DNA from: an uncultured Methanomassiliicoccales archaeon
Lineage (GTDB): Archaea; Thermoplasmatota; Thermoplasmata; Methanomassiliicoccales; UBA472
NCBI GenBank assembly: GCA_963695345.1
Contig: OY968769.1
Location: 928,001-992,000, forward strand
Reading direction: 5' to 3'
Length of the DNA stretch: 64,000 nucleotides
Shown: piece after piece, positions 1 to 60,388 of the stretch
How the letters are laid out: each line of letters opens with the position of its first letter
Position numbering within the stretch: the first letter of the stretch is position 1
Notes under the pieces: model-generated
Told to the model about the DNA's origin: nothing
Seen by the model: only the letters and a program-made list of their open reading frames with translations
Database searches by the model: none
Program-made: the position numbers and the translations under genes

Positions 1-93
1 TGAACGGCATTCGATCCGACGAAGGGTATGGCGTTGCTGAACGCGACGAAAACTCTGCCGTCACGCCCTTCGGGGCGAACACCGACCATCTCA

Positions 94-2031
94 CTACTCG
101 GGACGCCGCCATCCGCCTGCTGGAACCGTTATCTCGAAACGCGCTCCCCGTCCTGGCTGACCGCATTCCCGGATGGTGGTATCGGTTATGGCGAGCACTT
201 CCCGGATCAGGAACAGACCCAGGCCGGTGTTCTTTCCGTGCCCCTTCTTGAAGATCAGTTCCTTGTCCTCAGCGGCGATGCCCACCCCGTTGTCCTCATA
301 GATTATCTTCATGGCGTCGCCAACCTGCTCGGCGCTCATCTTTACCCGGTTCACATGTTCCCCATGCCGCATGGAGTTATCGATGAGGTTGTAGGGGACC
401 TTCATGGCCAATGGGTCGATCAGGATCTGCACGCCTCCGGTGTGCTCCTCGAAAGCCACTCCCTTCAGGTGAAGCTGGACAAAAGCCTCGGCGGTCTGTC
501 GGCCGATCGGTACCCAGGTTGGCGATTGGCTTCCTATGTCCTGATAGTCCCTGGTAAAGGCGATCTGTTGCTGCACGTTCGTGGCCGCCCGGGACATTTT
601 CTCCAGATACGCGATCATCTCGGGATCCTTTTCCCTGAGCTTGAACAGGGTCATGTATCCGGTAAGCACCTGCATCTGATTGAGAATGTCATGCCTGGTG
701 ATGCTGTTCAGCATACCCAGCTTGAGACTGGCCTGTCTGAGCGCCTCTTCCGCCCGCTTGCGTTCGGTGATGTCCTGGGCGCTGGTTCGGAAACCGATCG
801 AATGGCCGTTGGAGTCCATGATAGGCCTCCATGAGATAGAGATCCAGAATTTCGAGCCGTCCTTGCGCAGCGCCCTGACCTCCAGGCTGTCCCCGCTCCC
901 GCCTTCTATCGCCTTTCGCATCTTGTCGAACACCTTTGGGTGGTCCTCTTCGACAATCGCCATGTCCGTGTAGTTCTGAGCGGTGATGAATTCCTCAGGA
1001 GTGTATCCAGTCAAGGCGATCGAATAACTGTTCATCCACAATAGTCTGCCCTGAGGATCGAACCAGGCTTCCCAGCTGGCAGCATAGTTGGCGATGGCTT
1101 TGAACTTCTCCTCGCTGGCCTTGAGGGCATCCTCTGCCTTCTTGCGGTCCGTGATGTCCGTAATGATAACGGTGAACTGCATGGGGGCGTTGCCGTAGAC
1201 CGAAACCTCGAAATGCCGGTCCAGCGCCTGGGAGTAGCTCTCGAAGTGGTCCGGAACTCCGGTCAGGACCACCCTGCCGTATCTCTCGATCCATGTCGGC
1301 TCGACCGTTTTCAGGGTCTCCATCACAGTCTTACCCACAACGTCGGACCGTTTCAAACCGGTCATGCTTTCGAACTCTGCGTTAATCTCGATGAAACGAT
1401 AGTCGATCGGGATCCCGGCCTCGTCACAGATGATCTCGTGGACCGCCGCCCCGTTGATCATACCCTCGAACAGACTGCGATACCTCAACTCGCTTCCACG
1501 CAGTTGTTCCTCCGCGGCCGCCCTTGCCTCATTCCCGGCCTGAATCTTCTCCAGCTGCTTGCTCATTTCCAATTTTGCCGCAGCCAGTTCCTTGTTCGCC
1601 CGCAACAGCTTGCGGTTCCGCTGCTCCACTTCCTTATCCGCCTGCCGTTTCCGAACAGCCATCCGAAGACGGTGCTCGAGCTCTACGTACATCGGAGCGG
1701 GCATTCCGCCCTTCTGAAGGTAGGAATCCGCCCCATTGTTCAGGGCCTCTATGACCACCTCTTCCCTTCCCTTTCCCGTAAAGAGTATGAATGGTGTCTG
1801 GTCGCCGGATGCCCGCAATGATTTCAAGAATTGGATGCCGTCTTCGATGGGCATCTGATAATCGGAGACAATGGCGTCATATTTCTGGCCCAGCAATGCC
1901 TCCCGGGCCTTGGCCACGGAGGTTACGTTGTCGACCTGTATCTCCCCGGATATCTCAAGGAACTCCTTGCACAAGGAACCTAGGTCTGGCTCATCATCGA
2001 CCGCCAGTACCCGAATGCGAGGAGAGGACAT
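94..2031 (-). CDS. Hybrid sensor histidine kinase (REC - coiled coil - 2x PAS - H-box - HATPase_c)
   Basis: N-terminal receiver (VDDEPD, IVSDYQMP, FTGKG, YLQKG), PAS/PAC repeats (DITDRK, DITERK), H-box TRHDILNQ, N-box NLIDNS, G-boxes DNGVG and TGLGLF. Confidence 0.93.
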   Translation of the reverse strand: MSSPRIRVLAVDDEPDLGSLCKEFLEISGEIQVDNVTSVAKAREALLGQKYDAIVSDYQMPIEDGIQFLKSLRASGDQTPFILFTGKGREEVVIEALNNGADSYLQKGGMPAPMYVELEHRLRMAVRKRQADKEVEQRNRKLLRANKELAAAKLEMSKQLEKIQAGNEARAAAEEQLRGSELRYRSLFEGMINGAAVHEIICDEAGIPIDYRFIEINAEFESMTGLKRSDVVGKTVMETLKTVEPTWIERYGRVVLTGVPDHFESYSQALDRHFEVSVYGNAPMQFTVIITDITDRKKAEDALKASEEKFKAIANYAASWEAWFDPQGRLLWMNSYSIALTGYTPEEFITAQNYTDMAIVEEDHPKVFDKMRKAIEGGSGDSLEVRALRKDGSKFWISISWRPIMDSNGHSIGFRTSAQDITERKRAEEALRQASLKLGMLNSITRHDILNQMQVLTGYMTLFKLREKDPEMIAYLEKMSRAATNVQQQIAFTRDYQDIGSQSPTWVPIGRQTAEAFVQLHLKGVAFEEHTGGVQILIDPLAMKVPYNLIDNSMRHGEHVNRVKMSAEQVGDAMKIIYEDNGVGIAAEDKELIFKKGHGKNTGLGLFLIREVLAITDTTIRECGQPGRGARFEITVPAGGWRRPE

Positions 2032-3137: not shown

Positions 3138-3454
3138 CTATATGATATTCGCATCTGGTTGGTAATTAAATATTTCCCTGGTTCGAGGGGCCCTGCATGT
3201 CATGGTAGTTTTAATCCCGTTCAAGAATTGAATAAGTACGGAAGGTCGGCTTTCCCTACTTTCTAAAACTAACTGAATCTCAGATGGTCCCGACCCCTTA
3301 ACCTGTGACACTGGAATCAATTCGAAAAGGCAAATTCCAGGGTCCACAATGAAGCCGATATCTTCACCATATGTGGAGGTCACAACAATAACGCAGGTAG
3401 AATTTTATCGGACGGGAGAACTTCTGGAGATCCAAGTGTAAAAATGATAAGAAG

Positions 3455-3527
3455 TGGGCTCAGCCGGATTCGAACCGGCGACCTTCTGCGTGTGAGGCAA
3501 ACGTCATAACCGCTAGACCATGAGCCC
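3455..3527 (-). tRNA. tRNA-Val(CAC), no encoded CCA
   Basis: Reverse complement GGGCTCATGGTCTAGCGGTTATGACGTTTGCCTCACACGCAGAAGGTCGCCGGTTCGAATCCGGCTGAGCCCA: acceptor stem GGGCTCA/TGAGCCC, T-loop GTTCGAATC, anticodon loop CT-CAC-AC. Confidence 0.95.
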
Positions 3528-3701
3528 TTGAACCCCACAACATCACTTCAAGGTATTAATTCCTGACGGTGCTGGCATCAACTGGCGCCCCGTCCCTTGG
3601 AGAGGAAAGGTGTATGGAACTGCCATGCCCCTACCATTGTTTCGACCCTCGCCGATTGTACCCGGCAATGGTTTTAAGCCCTGTGGACATTGGCGTTCTG
3701 A

Positions 3702-5831
3702 ATGCCCGGTATGTTCTGCGACCGCTGCAAATCGATCATGACCCCAGTGGGCGACCGGCTCGTCTGCCGCAACTGCGGGATGACCCGTTCCAGGGATGGC
3801 GGGAGAGGTTCCAGCGGTGGACAGGGTCAGGCCATCAAGCCAAAGTTCCAGACCAGGCTTGCCGGGACCCGCGAGGAGAAGGAGGAAGAGGTCCGTGAGG
3901 AATCAGCCCCTCCTCCGAACCCGGACGCCAATTCCATATTCCCTTACTTGCCCAGGCCGCACCAGATGGATTTTGTGAAACTGATCGGAGAGGTACTTGA
4001 GTCCAGGGGCAACCTGGTGGTCGAATCGGGCACTGGCACCGGCAAGACCGTATGCGCTCTCGCCGGAACGGTGGAATATGCCCTTGCCAACGACAAACGG
4101 GTGGTGTACATCACCCGGACCAATTCCCAGGCGACGATCGCGATCAAGGAGCTGCGCGCCATCAGCAAGCGGAGGAACGTCCTGGGCATATCGCTCCAAG
4201 GACGGAGGAACAGTTGTCCCATGCTCTCCGAGATGTCGGTCGATAACCTGACCCCGGGAGAGCTGTCTCGGGTGTGCGAGCACAAGAAGAAGAACACCCG
4301 GGACGGGGTCAAGGGGGGCTGCACCTACTATGCTAACACCGTTCATCTGGGCCATTCATATTTCAAGAACTATTGCGCCGACAACGTTCCTACTTCCGAT
4401 GAGCTCTCCCGGTTTTGCGAGGCGGACGGCGCTTGCCCGTACGAGGTGGGGAAGATGCTCATGCCGGAATCGAAGGTGGTCATCGCCCCCTATCCCTATA
4501 TCATCTCCAGCGAGGTGAGGCACCATTTCCTCGAACAGCTCCAGGCGGAGGCGGAGGACCTAATATTGGTGGTTGACGAGGCCCATAACCTGGCCGACGC
4601 CGCCCGGGACGCGGAGAGCATACGGATCACAAAAAAGATCGCCTCCATCGTCACGATCGAGGCTGGCGAAATGGGAAACGCCCAGCTGTCCAAGGATGTT
4701 GACCTGAAGAGGTTCGCCGGCGCGCTCTTCGGCGTTCTGGACCGGGCCGCGGAGCTGTGCGCCGACTCAGGCAAGGACGAGGTAGCCCTGGGCCGAGGAT
4801 TCCTTGAAGGCACCCTGTGCGAGGCGCTGGGCTGCGACCGGGGCGAGTTGGCCGAGATCGTCGCCGAGATGCAGGCCACCGGAGAGGAGATGGCCTACAG
4901 GCGTCTCCAGAGCGGAAGGGAGCCGACATCGGCGACATTCACACTGGGAAGGGACCTGACCAACTGGGTGGCCTCGGACAACGCCCGCTATGTGAGGAGG
5001 GCCACGATGGAGGAGGGCGGCATGATCGAGGCATACTGCCTGGACCCCAAGGGAGCGCTCTCTTTCTTCCACGAGGTCCATGGTTCGATACACATGTCCG
5101 GGACACTGAGACCGCTCGACCAGTATGTCCGGGTCACGGCATTGGGCGACAATACCAGGACCGCCATATTCGAATCGCCCTTCCCCAAGGAGAACCGGAG
5201 GGTGCTCTTCGTGGAGGATGTCGAGGCGAAGTACGAATCGCGCTCAGACCCGAACGCCGTTCAGAAGCTTCACGACTACGTTTCCGATCTGGCAAATGCG
5301 GTCTCCCGTAACACGATGGTGTTCTTCCCGTCCCACGCCATGCTGCATAATTACCTGTACCGGAACGAGAAGCTGCTGACCAAGAAGGTCTACCGGGAGG
5401 TGCAGGGCGAGTCACAGGAAAAGCTGGTGGCCGATATCGGACGCTTCAAACGGGATTCCCGGAAAGGGGCGGTATTCTTCGCCGTGATGGGCGGACGGGT
5501 GTCGGAGGGACTGGACTTCCCTTTCGACGAGCTGCAACTGGTGGTGATCGTCGGAATTCCCTACCCCAAACCATCTTTGTGCCAGGAGCGTCTGCGCGAG
5601 TTCTACGATCAGCGCTTCGGGGGAAAAGGCTTCGAGTATGCTGTCAACGTTCCGGCGGCGCGCCGCATGATGCAGTCGATCGGCAGGCTGATCAGGACGG
5701 AAAAGGACGTCGGTTGCGCCGTGGTGCTGGACAGCCGGGCCCCCCGATTCATGAGATACCTGGAAATGGAGAAAAGCGAGGACCCGGTCGCGGACGTCAA
5801 GAATTTCTTCGTCGGACGACCGGGCCGTTGA
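3702..5831 (+). CDS. xpd: XPD/Rad3/DinG-family Fe-S SF2 DNA helicase with N-terminal TFS/RpoM-like zinc ribbon
   Basis: Q-motif FPY.PRPHQ, Walker A GTGTGKT, four Fe-S Cys (NSCP, RVCE, GCTY, ACPY), DEAH, SGT, EGLDF, QSIGRLIR; N-terminus MFCDRC..LVCRNCG. Confidence 0.92.
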   Translation: MPGMFCDRCKSIMTPVGDRLVCRNCGMTRSRDGGRGSSGGQGQAIKPKFQTRLAGTREEKEEEVREESAPPPNPDANSIFPYLPRPHQMDFVKLIGEVLESRGNLVVESGTGTGKTVCALAGTVEYALANDKRVVYITRTNSQATIAIKELRAISKRRNVLGISLQGRRNSCPMLSEMSVDNLTPGELSRVCEHKKKNTRDGVKGGCTYYANTVHLGHSYFKNYCADNVPTSDELSRFCEADGACPYEVGKMLMPESKVVIAPYPYIISSEVRHHFLEQLQAEAEDLILVVDEAHNLADAARDAESIRITKKIASIVTIEAGEMGNAQLSKDVDLKRFAGALFGVLDRAAELCADSGKDEVALGRGFLEGTLCEALGCDRGELAEIVAEMQATGEEMAYRRLQSGREPTSATFTLGRDLTNWVASDNARYVRRATMEEGGMIEAYCLDPKGALSFFHEVHGSIHMSGTLRPLDQYVRVTALGDNTRTAIFESPFPKENRRVLFVEDVEAKYESRSDPNAVQKLHDYVSDLANAVSRNTMVFFPSHAMLHNYLYRNEKLLTKKVYREVQGESQEKLVADIGRFKRDSRKGAVFFAVMGGRVSEGLDFPFDELQLVVIVGIPYPKPSLCQERLREFYDQRFGGKGFEYAVNVPAARRMMQSIGRLIRTEKDVGCAVVLDSRAPRFMRYLEMEKSEDPVADVKNFFVGRPGR

Positions 5832-5832
5832 C

Positions 5833-6555
5833 CTACTCGGAAAGCACCCTGGTGGCGCGGAACGAGGCATGGTCGAAAAGCAATGAGAAGTAGTTTCCAG
5901 CATGGTTGGTGGAACGCATCTTTACCACCCGGATGCGGCGCTGAACATCGGTGTCCCCGATCTCCGCCATCTTCAGCAATATGACCCCGTCCGCCAGGTA
6001 CGCCTCGTCCCGGTGGTGGCAGTTATACTGGTCCGGGTTGCACTCGGATATCAGGAAGCAGGTCACGCCCATTCCCCGGAGCCACTCGAACATGTAGAAC
6101 AGTTCCGCCCTTCGTTCCTCCGGCTTCATCTGCGCCGCCATCTCCAGGACGTCGAGCGAGTCCAGTATCAGGATCTCATAGCCGAGGGAGGTCTTCAGGT
6201 TCTCCGCGTACATCTTGAAGACCTGCATCCAGCTACCTTTTGCGGACAGTTGCGTCAAGGATTTCCTGATGATGCCCAGGTCAAGAACGTTCACCGTGTC
6301 GCGGACCAGGTCCGGGTTCATGCCCATCGATTCCATCTGCTGATTCAGGCCTTCCCGGGACTGCTCCAGAGTCATGTAGAGCGATCTTGTGCCGCTTTTC
6401 AAGGCGTTCTGATAGATTATTGAGTAAGCGATCGAGGACTTCATGGTTCCTGGCGCACCCGCTAGAAGAACCAGATGCCCTTTGGGAACGCCTCCTCCCA
6501 TATTCTCGTCAAGGTTCTCGATGAAGGTCTTAACTCGCGAAATCTGCATTCCCAC
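5833..6555 (-). CDS. KaiC-like/RAD55-family RecA-superfamily ATPase
   Basis: LDENMGGGVP, GAPGTMKS, LEQS, Walker B LILDS, YLADG, VKMR. Confidence 0.9.
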   Translation of the reverse strand: MGMQISRVKTFIENLDENMGGGVPKGHLVLLAGAPGTMKSSIAYSIIYQNALKSGTRSLYMTLEQSREGLNQQMESMGMNPDLVRDTVNVLDLGIIRKSLTQLSAKGSWMQVFKMYAENLKTSLGYEILILDSLDVLEMAAQMKPEERRAELFYMFEWLRGMGVTCFLISECNPDQYNCHHRDEAYLADGVILLKMAEIGDTDVQRRIRVVKMRSTNHAGNYFSLLFDHASFRATRVLSE

Positions 6556-6641: not shown

Positions 6642-8192
6642 TCAGTGATCGACTATCGGTATGGTGAGGTTGAAATGTTCCCCGTCATGGAACATCGCGT
6701 AATAGCGGGTGTCAACGTTCATCCCGCGCAGCTTGGGACAGCGCACCCATCTCTGCACCTTCGACTCGTCCAGCTGCCTCATCAGTATCTCGATGGCCCC
6801 ATCCGCCAGATACAGTTCGCTATCCGCGCTATCCACCAGCTGGTCCATCGGCTTCTCCGAGATCAACATCACGGTGATGCCCAGGGATTTGAACCAATCG
6901 AACAGGTCCTTGAGGTCCTGGCGGGTGAACTCATGATCGGAAACCGCCTTGAAGGAATCGAGGGAATCGAGCACGAAGATGCGGAAAGGACGCTCGGCGA
7001 ATACGTTCTTGACGTACCGCAGGAGTATCTCCCTCCAATCGCCTTTGGAGGCTTCCATCTCCTTGCGCAGGTCGACCATGTCGACCACCATCATGTGCTC
7101 GACGGCATGGGGCGATGGCATCTTGAGCCGGCCCATCTGCCTCAATATCGAGGCCCGTGTCTGTTCCAATGAGAAGTACATGGAACTGACCCCATCGTAC
7201 AGGGCGGCATTGTGGAGAATGGTATAGGTGAGGGTGGACTTCATGGTACCGGGGGCACCATTGACCAGTATGACGTGCCCTTCTGGAATGCCTCCGCCCA
7301 GAATGGTGTCGAACTTCTCGATGTGAGTGTGGATCGTCCTATCCGGGCCTGACGCGGGAATACCGGCCCCGATCTGTATGTCCAGCTCCGGTCGGACTAT
7401 CCTCACCAGTTCGGCCACCTTCGCCTTGATGTCGGCGCGGGCGTCCTCCTCCTCCCCCTCCATCTTCTCGCCGATGGTGCATCTGACCTCTGCCTTGACC
7501 AGCCGATGAAGCTCCACGATCTGATTGGTGGCCTCGGCGAGCTGCTGCTTTGCCAGCTTGAGCTCCGAGGTCAATCTGTCCTTCTCGGTCAGCTTGGCCT
7601 CCAGTTCCTCTTCGAGGGCTTTTTTCAGCTTGACCTTCTCGTTCTCGATCGCCGCCCCGTACTTCTTCCTTATGTCATCCAGCTTCTGGACGTCGGCGGC
7701 GGTTATGCGCGAGGACTTCAGCTTGTCCTCCAGAATCATGATCTCCTGTATGCCCTTGTCGAACTTCTCCGACATGAGCTCCAGCTCCTGCTCCTTCTCC
7801 CGGATGGACATCTCCTTGCATTTGATCATTGTCTGATCGGACTCGAACTGCCTCACCGATTCCTCAAGCTGATTCTGGTCCTTCTCCATCTTGTCGAAGG
7901 TGTCCCGCATCCGCTTTTCCTTCTCGATGATCGCCTTCTCCCGGGCGGAGATCTCCTTGTCCTTTTCCTCCAGCATCTTCCGCAATTTGGACAATGATGT
8001 GAAATCCGACGAATCCAGACGGATCTGGGTCTGCTCCTCGGCGATGACCTTGTCAATAACGATGTTGGAGGGCATATCCCCCTCTCTCTGTGAACGGGGG
8101 TCGATCTTCCTCAGCATCTCTCCGCAACGGTCACATTGGATGTCGTTCGGTTTTACCCCTGAACCGCACCGCGGGCACTCGTATTTTGACAT
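6642..8192 (-). CDS. Zinc ribbon - long coiled coil - KaiC-like ATPase fusion
   Basis: CPRC...CDRC N-terminus, ~200-aa E/K-rich heptad region, C-terminal GGGIP/GAPGTMKS/FVLDS/YLADG/KLR domain. Confidence 0.88.
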   Translation of the reverse strand: MSKYECPRCGSGVKPNDIQCDRCGEMLRKIDPRSQREGDMPSNIVIDKVIAEEQTQIRLDSSDFTSLSKLRKMLEEKDKEISAREKAIIEKEKRMRDTFDKMEKDQNQLEESVRQFESDQTMIKCKEMSIREKEQELELMSEKFDKGIQEIMILEDKLKSSRITAADVQKLDDIRKKYGAAIENEKVKLKKALEEELEAKLTEKDRLTSELKLAKQQLAEATNQIVELHRLVKAEVRCTIGEKMEGEEEDARADIKAKVAELVRIVRPELDIQIGAGIPASGPDRTIHTHIEKFDTILGGGIPEGHVILVNGAPGTMKSTLTYTILHNAALYDGVSSMYFSLEQTRASILRQMGRLKMPSPHAVEHMMVVDMVDLRKEMEASKGDWREILLRYVKNVFAERPFRIFVLDSLDSFKAVSDHEFTRQDLKDLFDWFKSLGITVMLISEKPMDQLVDSADSELYLADGAIEILMRQLDESKVQRWVRCPKLRGMNVDTRYYAMFHDGEHFNLTIPIVDH

Positions 8193-18096: not shown

Positions 18097-18402
18097 ATGT
18101 TCTGTCCTACATGTAAAGCCCTTGCGTTGCCGAAGAACGGCAAGATCTGGTGCAACCGATGCCAGAAAGAGTATGACGTGACCGCCAACAAGGCTGACAC
18201 ATGCGTCATCAGGGGCAAGGAGAAGGAGCAGATGGTGGTTGAGAACTCGGCGCCGACGTTGCCCAAGACCAAGGTCGAATGCCCCAAGTGCAAGCACAAT
18301 GAGGCTTTCTGGGTGCTCAGGCAGACCAGGGCGGCGGATGAACCCGAGACCAAGATCTATCGTTGCTGTGAATGCGGTGCCTCCTGGCGCGAGTACGGTT
18401 AA
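18097..18402 (+). CDS. tfs: Transcription elongation/cleavage factor TFS (RpoM)
   Basis: N-ribbon MFCPTC..WCNRC; C-ribbon CPKC..QTRAADEPET.IYRC.EC with catalytic DE. Confidence 0.95.
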   Translation: MFCPTCKALALPKNGKIWCNRCQKEYDVTANKADTCVIRGKEKEQMVVENSAPTLPKTKVECPKCKHNEAFWVLRQTRAADEPETKIYRCCECGASWREYG

Positions 18403-60178: not shown

Positions 60179-60388
60179 CTATGGCCATCTGGATTTTTTC
60201 CTCTTATCCGGCTTTTTCTCTTCCATGGCCTTGATCTCCTCCTCGGTCATGTCCCGCTCCAGGACCACCGGCCCGATGTAGTCGCAGGTCTTGCAGTGGT
60301 AGATCACGCCGGTGATCATGGCGTTCTCATAGTACAGATCGGATGAGCCGCACTGAGGGCAGGTCAAGATCGTCTTCGGCATGAACAA
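60179..60388 (-). CDS. Small zinc-ribbon protein
   Basis: CPQCGS..Y.CKTC.Y.G. Confidence 0.75.
   Translation of the reverse strand: MFMPKTILTCPQCGSSDLYYENAMITGVIYHCKTCDYIGPVVLERDMTEEEIKAMEEKKPDKRKKSRWP

Follow-up and report, generated by a model that had tools for sequence, protein, structure and literature searches.

The window analysed here is a stretch of 64,000 nucleotides from the genome of an uncultured Methanomassiliicoccales archaeon (NCBI GenBank assembly GCA_963695345.1, contig OY968769.1, positions 928,001 to 992,000 of the forward strand), and the gene in question encodes a helicase of the XPD/Rad3 family that carries a zinc ribbon ahead of its helicase core (hereafter ribbon-XPD). 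The features concerned are listed below by their positions in the window, together with the gene for the transcript cleavage factor TFS, which served as comparator.

3702..5831, + strand: ribbon-bearing XPD/Rad3 paralogue, whole gene, an open reading frame (ORF) of 709 amino acids (aa) plus stop
3711..3779, + strand: N-terminal four-cysteine zinc ribbon, residues M4-G26, CxxC-x12-CxxC, recognized by sequence, conservation and PF02150
3780..3932, + strand: flexible linker, residues 27-77, Gly/Ser-rich, then basic, then acidic, recognized by the AlphaFold2 (AF2) model and lineage variation
3933..5828, + strand: XPD helicase core, residues 78-709, with Q motif, Walker A, Fe-S cysteines, DEAH, Arch/HBB and HD2
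18097..18402, + strand: TFS (transcript cleavage factor), 101 aa, PF01096, used for comparison; may compete for the same site on RNA polymerase

The 709-aa product starts with MPGMFCDRCKSIMTPVGDRLVCRNCG, and the 101-aa TFS starts with MFCPTCKALALPKNGKIWCNRCQ. From about residue 84 onwards the helicase matched the Pfam models DEAD_2 (101.9 bits; cut-off 21), HBB (90.7 bits; cut-off 30) and Helicase_C_2 (121.7 bits; cut-off 25.3), exceeding the cut-off in each case, and it also scored above the cut-off of TIGR00604 rad3 (261.5 bits; cut-off 246.95). In a phmmer search against the PDB, the hits included the XPD chains 9p55_A (E 9.8e-101), 4a15_A (2.3e-100) and 2vsf_A (6.6e-99), all aligned to the query from residue 81-105. 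Q88, the Walker A residues G110-T116 (GTGTGKT) and the DEAH box D292-H295 were invariant in an alignment of 58 ribbon-bearing orthologues, as were C172, C192, C207, C239 and C245 of the core, four of which, judging by position, we take to be ligands of the 4Fe-4S cluster in HD1. The AF2 model, computed with the 58 orthologues as input, had a mean predicted local distance difference test score (pLDDT) of 85.9 with a confident helicase core; three short strands were formed in the ribbon region, residues 12-30 (pLDDT 66-75), and linker residues 33-67 stayed below a pLDDT of 50. Together with the confident core, this gives a small zinc module on a loose tether with an intact helicase behind it; the linker also differs in both length and sequence from lineage to lineage. 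The protein is thereby a predicted 5'-3' Fe-S helicase with an intact core and an order-specific paralogue of XPD. A reading of this DNA from its letters only (hereafter the sequence-only reading) had described an XPD fused to an N-terminal zinc ribbon through a Gly/Ser-rich and acidic linker of about 50 aa, with no catalytic C-ribbon, and all of this was borne out: one ORF holds the ribbon, the linker and a complete helicase, and PF01096, the catalytic C-ribbon with its acidic hairpin, had no match in the helicase at E<=10. The C-terminal ribbon of the TFS matched the same model at 63.7 bits (E 1.3e-17).

Ribbon and core are read in one frame with zero stops between them. Phenylalanine F5 and the cysteines C6, C9, C22 and C25 were invariant in the 58 orthologues, and of the 13 codons among the first 26 that vary within the genus, 8 differed synonymously only. 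Among the best 120 database matches to the whole protein, 69 had a complete ribbon ahead of motif I and 28 were plain XPDs; the other 23 had an N-terminal extension minus a complete ribbon, with 18 beginning inside the ribbon, one retaining half of it and four having none. The 18 cut-ribbon matches begin either with an internal Met or at the edge of a fragment; annotation thus often removes the ribbon. The open frame, the constraint and the conservation all place the start upstream of the ribbon, as the sequence-only reading had assumed, and the survey of orthologues that it had proposed found the ribbon kept (69 complete, plus the 18 cut by a mis-called start). We therefore regard the fusion as almost certainly real, conserved and functional. 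Sampled-word shares of only 0.05-0.06 in six metatranscriptome or metagenome runs, kept as contigs, have no bearing on the start either way. A TTTTAA hexamer at 3672..3677 precedes the ATG at 3702 by about 27 bases; given the usual geometry of archaeal promoters, we presume that it could be a TATA box giving a leaderless transcript that includes the ribbon.

The genome, assembled as one contig of 2.56 Mb, encodes a second, plain XPD that is 40% identical to ribbon-XPD, as well as a third, more distant Rad3-like gene broken into three frames. XPD was found in all of the 41 genomes of the order, each of which also gave one TFS match. Within the genus, a full-length ribbon-XPD is intact in five genomes (89-94% identity) and present in pieces in two more, one of them a 55%-complete assembly, and more distant ribbon-bearing XPDs occur in nine further genomes (G010, G020, G014, G029, G033, G037, G030, G034 and G038). 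The source names of ribbon-XPDs are Methanomassiliicoccales, Methanomassiliicoccaceae, Methanomethylophilaceae and Methanoplasma. In a quick maximum-likelihood tree of 61 helicase cores (IQ-TREE, LG+G4; ribbon and linker excluded, three near-identical same-genus rows and one truncated row left out, and L012, L095 and L100 lost at the motif step), all 18 of 18 ribbon-bearing sequences fell into one clade with an SH-aLRT support of 100. This clade is nested within the XPDs of the order, adjoins the plain XPDs of family f7 (support 87) and spans three families (f1, f6 and f7). Since all ribbon-bearing cores form one clade, a single gain of the ribbon accounts for the pattern.

Beyond the order, a class sample of 201 genomes (the tally in which G135 counts) gave ribbon-aligned matches from the order only, with 20 long-frame candidates elsewhere having no ribbon. 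When 301 genomes sampled from the phylum were scanned with a profile that covers ribbon, linker and motif I, strong full-length matches were confined to the order; 14 further long-frame candidates were ribbon-less, and only G300 and G355 had a ribbon, on a helicase of another family described below. A ribbon on XPD proper outside the order was thus sought and not found in the sampled genomes of class and phylum. In genus g3, the ribbon-XPD (LFCKDCNSILFRRGNRYLCRRCG, with a 12-residue spacer) is split in both genomes (L188, G016:C7:167700-170100; L189, G022:C7:66200-68500): ribbon, N-terminal half and C-terminal half lie in different frames in G022, and the ribbon and the C-terminal part do so in G016, suggesting that the gene is decaying there. 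Many of the otherwise variable linkers of family f7 (L108, L117-L119, P0036, P0083 and others) carry the motif (S/T)xQS(S/C)L about 10 residues past the ribbon, in place of which the genus of the window keeps KPKFQTRLAGTRE; both may be short binding motifs.

The resemblance between this ribbon and the N-ribbon of TFS, on which the sequence-only reading was built, was examined with genome-wide controls, which were needed because N-terminal ribbons are common in the genome (36 of 9009 crude ORFs of >=80 aa start with a CxxC-x8-16-CxxC ribbon). For residues 1-78, PF02150 (Zn_ribbon_RPB9; gathering cut-off 25.2 bits) was the top Pfam model at 21.7 bits (E 1.9e-4), followed by C1_1 (15.3) and DZR_2 (14.5); the whole protein scored 18.0 bits. 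The best of the generic ribbon models (PF13240, PF12773 DZR and PF18912) for this protein was DZR_2, which at 14.5 bits (cut-off 27) trails PF02150. The TFS of this genome likewise falls under the PF02150 cut-off, at 18.6-22.7 bits (22.7 for the N-ribbon alone). Across the whole genome, the XPD ribbon ranked first on PF02150 (22.2 bits), ahead of TFS (20.6) and a 69-aa protein (18.8), after which scores dropped to 12.8; this third match, at 60179..60388 on the - strand, has a long-spacer ribbon (CPQC...x21...CKTC). Among 34,632 six-frame segments, a profile built from 17 TFS N-ribbons of the order's other genera found TFS at 35.5 bits and then the XPD ribbon at 18.1 (E 1.7e-3), with noise from 12.1; in the 41 genomes, the XPD ribbon came second in 8/8 genomes of the genus, at 21.4-29.8 bits with E values from 3e-6 to 1e-3, and the g3 ribbon scored 20.1 bits. 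By direct comparison, BLASTP of residues 1-78 against TFS gave 24.3 bits (E 7e-5, single comparison), the full-length XPD query matched the TFS of G027 with 53% identity over residues 4-37, and hhalign scored the own ribbon at 46.6 against TFS and 22.7 against generic ribbon units, with 41.6 against the ribbons of the second helicase family. Within the genus, the XPD ribbon is the most TFS N-ribbon-like of all the ribbons in the genome.

The shared features are those of the N-ribbons of TFS, TFS4, Rpb9, A12.2 and C11, namely F-CxxC-x12-CxxC with the pattern FC..CKS(L/I)M.P, and the XPD ribbon aligns without gaps to TFS4 bound to RNA polymerase (PDB 7OQY; 7oqy_Y residues 3-26). The half-motif FC..CKSLM.P is common to the consensus of the ribbon-XPD clade and that of the order's TFS. 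The XPD protein differs from TFS in lacking the PF01096 ribbon and in having mostly 10-spacer, generic-looking ribbons among its orthologues. Recent gene conversion from TFS was considered and ruled out, with the two ribbon DNAs identical at 34/75 bases only.

The ribbon-bearing proteins of G300 and G355, from another family of the phylum, consist of MSVKFCKKCKQLLPPRTVRCPRCG, a linker and a divergent Rad3-like helicase, and they belong to a second, deeply separate Rad3-like ribbon family (fam2), widespread in Thermoplasmatota, which is new in this analysis. In a tree of 63 cores, XPD proper and fam2 were split by branches with a support of 100. When the fam2 protein P0247 was used as query, 66 of the best 120 matches had a complete N-terminal ribbon and some of the others began inside one; their source names include Thermoplasmata, Thermoplasmatota, Saliniplasma, Natronoplasma and Aenigmatarchaeota. 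More ribbon-helicases with spacers of 12-16, among them one with the source name Heimdallarchaeaceae and one with Woesearchaeota, came up when 1.84 billion representative proteins were searched with a profile. Members of fam2 (P0287, P0288, P0294 and P0296, for example) share with ribbon-XPD the succession of ribbon, linker and DEAD_2-HBB-Helicase_C_2, and they differ from it in spacers of 9-16 residues, mostly 12 (among the 66: 12 in 39, 16 in 10, 10 in 10, 9 in 5, 11 in 1 and 14 in 1), and in that some of their ribbons exceed the PF02150 cut-off. At E<=1, PF02150 gave the best E of any ribbon model for the 66 members (5.3e-6), matching 23/66, and DZR matched 53 with a best E of 1e-3; four of the ten members scanned singly passed the PF02150 cut-off (25.7, 25.9, 26.0 and 26.6 bits) and a fifth reached 25.1. 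Searched in the window's genome, the fam2 ribbon profile found TFS (22.4 bits), a 43-residue ribbon frame (22.2) and the XPD ribbon (20.5) before falling to 15.9. The ribbon profiles of fam2 and ribbon-XPD scored 51.3 in hhalign, a method that the generic control shows to discriminate poorly.

The fam2 ribbons make a TFS/Rpb9-type ribbon ahead of an XPD-family helicase a recurring architecture. The third Rad3-like gene of the window's genome is of the fam2 type (G000:C1:1889984-1891647, - strand, loci L003-L005); its open frames measure 155-207 aa. Probably the gene is a pseudogene or misassembled, and ribbon-less, intact copies are present in other genomes of the genus. We also considered a complementary distribution, with the ribbon on fam2 where ribbon-XPD is missing, and rejected it, since the fam2 members of the window's order (seven rows) are ribbon-less (0/7). 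The 952-aa fam2 protein P0402, a match to P0247, has the HEAT-repeat domains PF02985 and PF13646 in its precomputed annotation, a further sign that fam2 collects partner-binding modules.

Combined with the above, a model can be proposed in which an order-specific XPD paralogue gained a TFS/Rpb9-type N-ribbon on a disordered linker of about 50 residues, the ribbon serving as a docking module with no catalytic part. Its likeliest target would be the site on RNA polymerase, between lobe and upper jaw, that TFS-type N-ribbons occupy; TFS4 docks there with its N-terminal ribbon "similarly to canonical cleavage factors", as a passage of PMC9501531 puts it. The helicase would then be kept within about 50 residues' reach of the elongating or stalled polymerase, could load on single-stranded DNA, either in the bubble or in the wake of the polymerase, for lesion verification or the clearance of R-loops or arrested complexes, and would compete with TFS for the polymerase site. 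A complex was predicted for Rpo1C 130-484, Rpo2 1-470 (both from this genome, and aligned with those of relatives) and XPD 1-45. Three runs gave ipSAE values of 0.40, 0.39 and 0.39, which the tool rates as 'weak support', with a partner pLDDT of 61-62 and agreement between runs in at least 82% of contacts; three controls gave 0.00, 0.00 and 0.01, the last with the Rpo2 fragment replaced. In the tool's calibration, this mark was reached by 58/80 solved complexes and 2/110 mismatched pairs, and at a score <=0.60 it was reached by only 7/80 solved complexes and by both of the mismatched pairs. The prediction is thus weak evidence, a small push upward only. The Rpo1C (A'') of the order is 474-494 aa long (L128, G000:C1:1323612-1325063) and contains an extra N-terminal region of about 130 residues, conserved across the order, that precedes the conserved trigger-loop block. 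Taken as a whole, including docking on RNA polymerase through the ribbon, the model strikes us as a real contender that falls somewhat short of even, and the sequence-only reading that first raised it is partly supported overall.

A number of observations weigh against this model. The complex score is weak and possibly reflects the prediction model's memory of solved Rpb9/TFS complexes, and no interface was returned. The XPD ribbon, at 21.7-22.2 bits, stays under the PF02150 cut-off, and its phmmer matches in the PDB were unspecific (PKC C1 15.9, RpoM-2/TFS4 15.7 and S27ae 15.6 bits), none of them significant (all E>0.1). A ribbon-bearing XPD is missing altogether from many genomes of the order, and the genes flanking it vary by family, with no common gene and no transcription gene seen at five loci from three families (1.5 kb flanks, ORFs by eye). 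Across the clade, the spacer is 10 residues long in 52/57 unique ribbons (12 in 4 and 9 in 1), and the 58 members, counted at E<=1 rather than by cut-off, matched DZR in 42 cases, PF13240 in 30 (best E 8.7e-5), DZR_2 in 27, PF13248 in 17 and PF02150 in nine. A profile of 60 non-genus ribbons found generic ribbons (21.0, 19.2 and 17.8 bits) before TFS (11.6); on the TFS profile, the 10-spacer ribbons scored 12.9-14 bits, which is noise, or were unlisted, as was the 12-spacer ribbon of G010. In hhalign, the clade profile scored 46.3 against TFS and 42.0 against a generic control of 83 ribbon units from multi-ribbon proteins and so cannot discriminate, and the probabilities (97-98%) are uninformative because this control reaches the same range. 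The global profile search also matched arrays of repeated generic ribbons. The clade-wide observations would fit a generic ribbon of the PF13240/DZR type that binds another partner, such as a repair or replication protein, or nucleic acid, its likeness to TFS being a convergence over 23 residues, and the abundance of N-terminal ribbons in the genome, one of them on the neighbouring gene 6642..8192 (-), points the same way. Such a generic adaptor ribbon is the main rival and quite conceivable, though we do not favour it: both PF02150 and the TFS profile put the ribbons of XPD and TFS well ahead of every other ribbon of the genome, a result repeated in 8/8 genomes of the genus; the own ribbon is far closer to TFS than to generic units in hhalign; some ribbons of fam2, a separate helicase family, exceed the PF02150 cut-off; and the gene neighbourhood points to no alternative partner. 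The TFS-type assignment made in the sequence-only reading is thus probable for this protein, where PF02150 beats the generic models (21.7 against 15.3 bits for the next model), and for its genus; it is not supported for the clade as a whole or at the level of the Pfam cut-off. Since the variable spacer in fam2 shows that such ribbons shorten, the 10-spacer ribbons become easier to accept as shortened relatives rather than a different module, which is how we would interpret them. The 12-spacer forms (own genus and G010) are basal in the ribbon clade, outside a 10-spacer subclade (support 99), and the branching at the base of the clade leaves room for either order, so that the TFS-like form may be ancestral or derived. 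On balance, we lean slightly towards homology of the XPD ribbon with the N-ribbons of TFS and Rpb9.

The ribbon could instead fold back on the helicase itself, on the Arch domain, the Fe-S domain or the DNA path, and serve there as a lid, an auto-inhibitor or an additional clamp on DNA, independent of any outside partner. A small tethered domain is able to reach any face of the core, and regulation through the Arch domain is frequent among XPD-family enzymes. The AF2 model, however, showed no confident connection between ribbon and core, with its low pLDDT values in both ribbon and linker, and the wide variation of the linker between lineages is more in keeping with a loose tether than with a fixed intramolecular contact, leaving this role improbable. 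That the ribbon is not part of the protein at all, with the start lying downstream, or is a decaying, functionless remnant could be argued from gene callers that often begin in or after it and from the frame changes that split the gene in both g3 genomes. The frame without a stop between ribbon and core, F5 and the four cysteines invariant in 58 sequences from several families, the synonymous-only changes at 8/13 variable codons and a ribbon clade old enough to span three families speak so strongly to the contrary that conservation already brings this explanation close to refutation, and we give it hardly any weight. Docking on RNA polymerase through a TFS-type ribbon could also apply more widely: XPD-family helicases of Thermoplasmatota and of some Asgard and DPANN archaea might dock on the polymerase lobe/jaw in this way, a generalization that we consider rather unlikely at present. 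If true, these would be polymerase-tethered 5'-3' helicases for transcription-coupled lesion verification and the removal of arrested complexes or R-loops, competing with TFS, and the window's gene would be the version with the ribbon on a duplicate of XPD proper.

Among solved structures, the Thermoplasma acidophilum XPD Ta0057 (4A15/2VSF/5H8W) and 9P55 share the family and domain order of ribbon-XPD (HD1 with Fe-S, Arch/HBB and HD2), aligning at phmmer E values around 1e-100 over query residues 81-707. The Thermoplasma chains align from their residue 3-7 to query residues 83-105 and the 9p55 chain from its residue 26 to query residue 81; neither has a ribbon or a linker, since chains that start 2-6 residues (25 in 9P55) before the match point leave no room for a ribbon. 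The claim that well-studied archaeal XPDs are ribbon-free therefore held for these chains, from which the window's XPD differs in being a second, order-specific paralogue. Eukaryotic XPD reaches the polymerase via TFIIH, not through a ribbon of its own. Mfd, CSB, TFIIH-XPD and the euryarchaeal Eta would follow the same logic as proposed here, with an ATP-driven motor brought to a stalled polymerase, and ribbon-XPD has no sequence relation to Mfd, CSB or Eta. Docking through the ribbon, if true, would make ribbon-XPD an archaeal single-chain counterpart of the eukaryotic link between XPD and the transcription machinery via TFIIH, would bear on how XPD joined that machinery in eukaryotes, and would offer a concrete hypothesis for the coupling of repair or clearance to transcription in these archaea. 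Neither a TRCF (Mfd) domain nor UvrB was found in this genome (one contig, estimated completeness 85%), in line with the sequence-only reading as far as Mfd is concerned. Passages of a review (PMC7690668) state that archaea lack a defined nucleotide excision repair pathway, that the role of archaeal XPD is open and that archaea have no homologue of CSB or Mfd; they describe a damage-stalled polymerase as an attractive damage sensor and Eta as a candidate coupling factor.

No published description of the ribbon-XPD fusion was found in the full-text literature, a coverage outside which most subscription journals and supplements lie. XPD and Rad3 do not occur in the retrieved portion of a comparative genomics study of the order (PMC4153887), nor does 'zinc' in that of a 2026 review of XPB and XPD (PMC13024598). 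The precomputed Pfam annotations of public proteins show the architecture, which is thus present in databases even if undescribed; as gene callers often start inside the ribbon, genome annotation largely misses both families of ribbon-helicases. Whatever the ribbon binds, the analysis defines two groups of helicases: an XPD paralogue conserved in, and specific to, this order, and another Rad3-like family with ribbons.

Around ribbon-XPD, a tRNA-Val gene lies upstream on the opposite strand (3454-3527), and two genes on the - strand, 5833..6555 and 6642..8192, converge on its 3' end; by motif (GAPGTMKS), both presumably resemble KaiC/RecA-type ATPases. The former stays beside XPD in other genomes of the genus. 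The 516-aa product of the latter has its own N-terminal zinc ribbon (MSKYECPRCGSGVKPNDIQCDRCG), followed by a long Glu/Lys-rich stretch of coiled-coil appearance. In several genomes outside the order, from other families of the class (L065, L066, L071, L078 and L084), the plain XPD gene has a well conserved small gene directly upstream (...NSIDKSGMETEAARAMAKHVLNFFGYSDRIIDNVLEPEDRDAFYMLEDSGLLTTEREETTLYDGREWRIHYW...).

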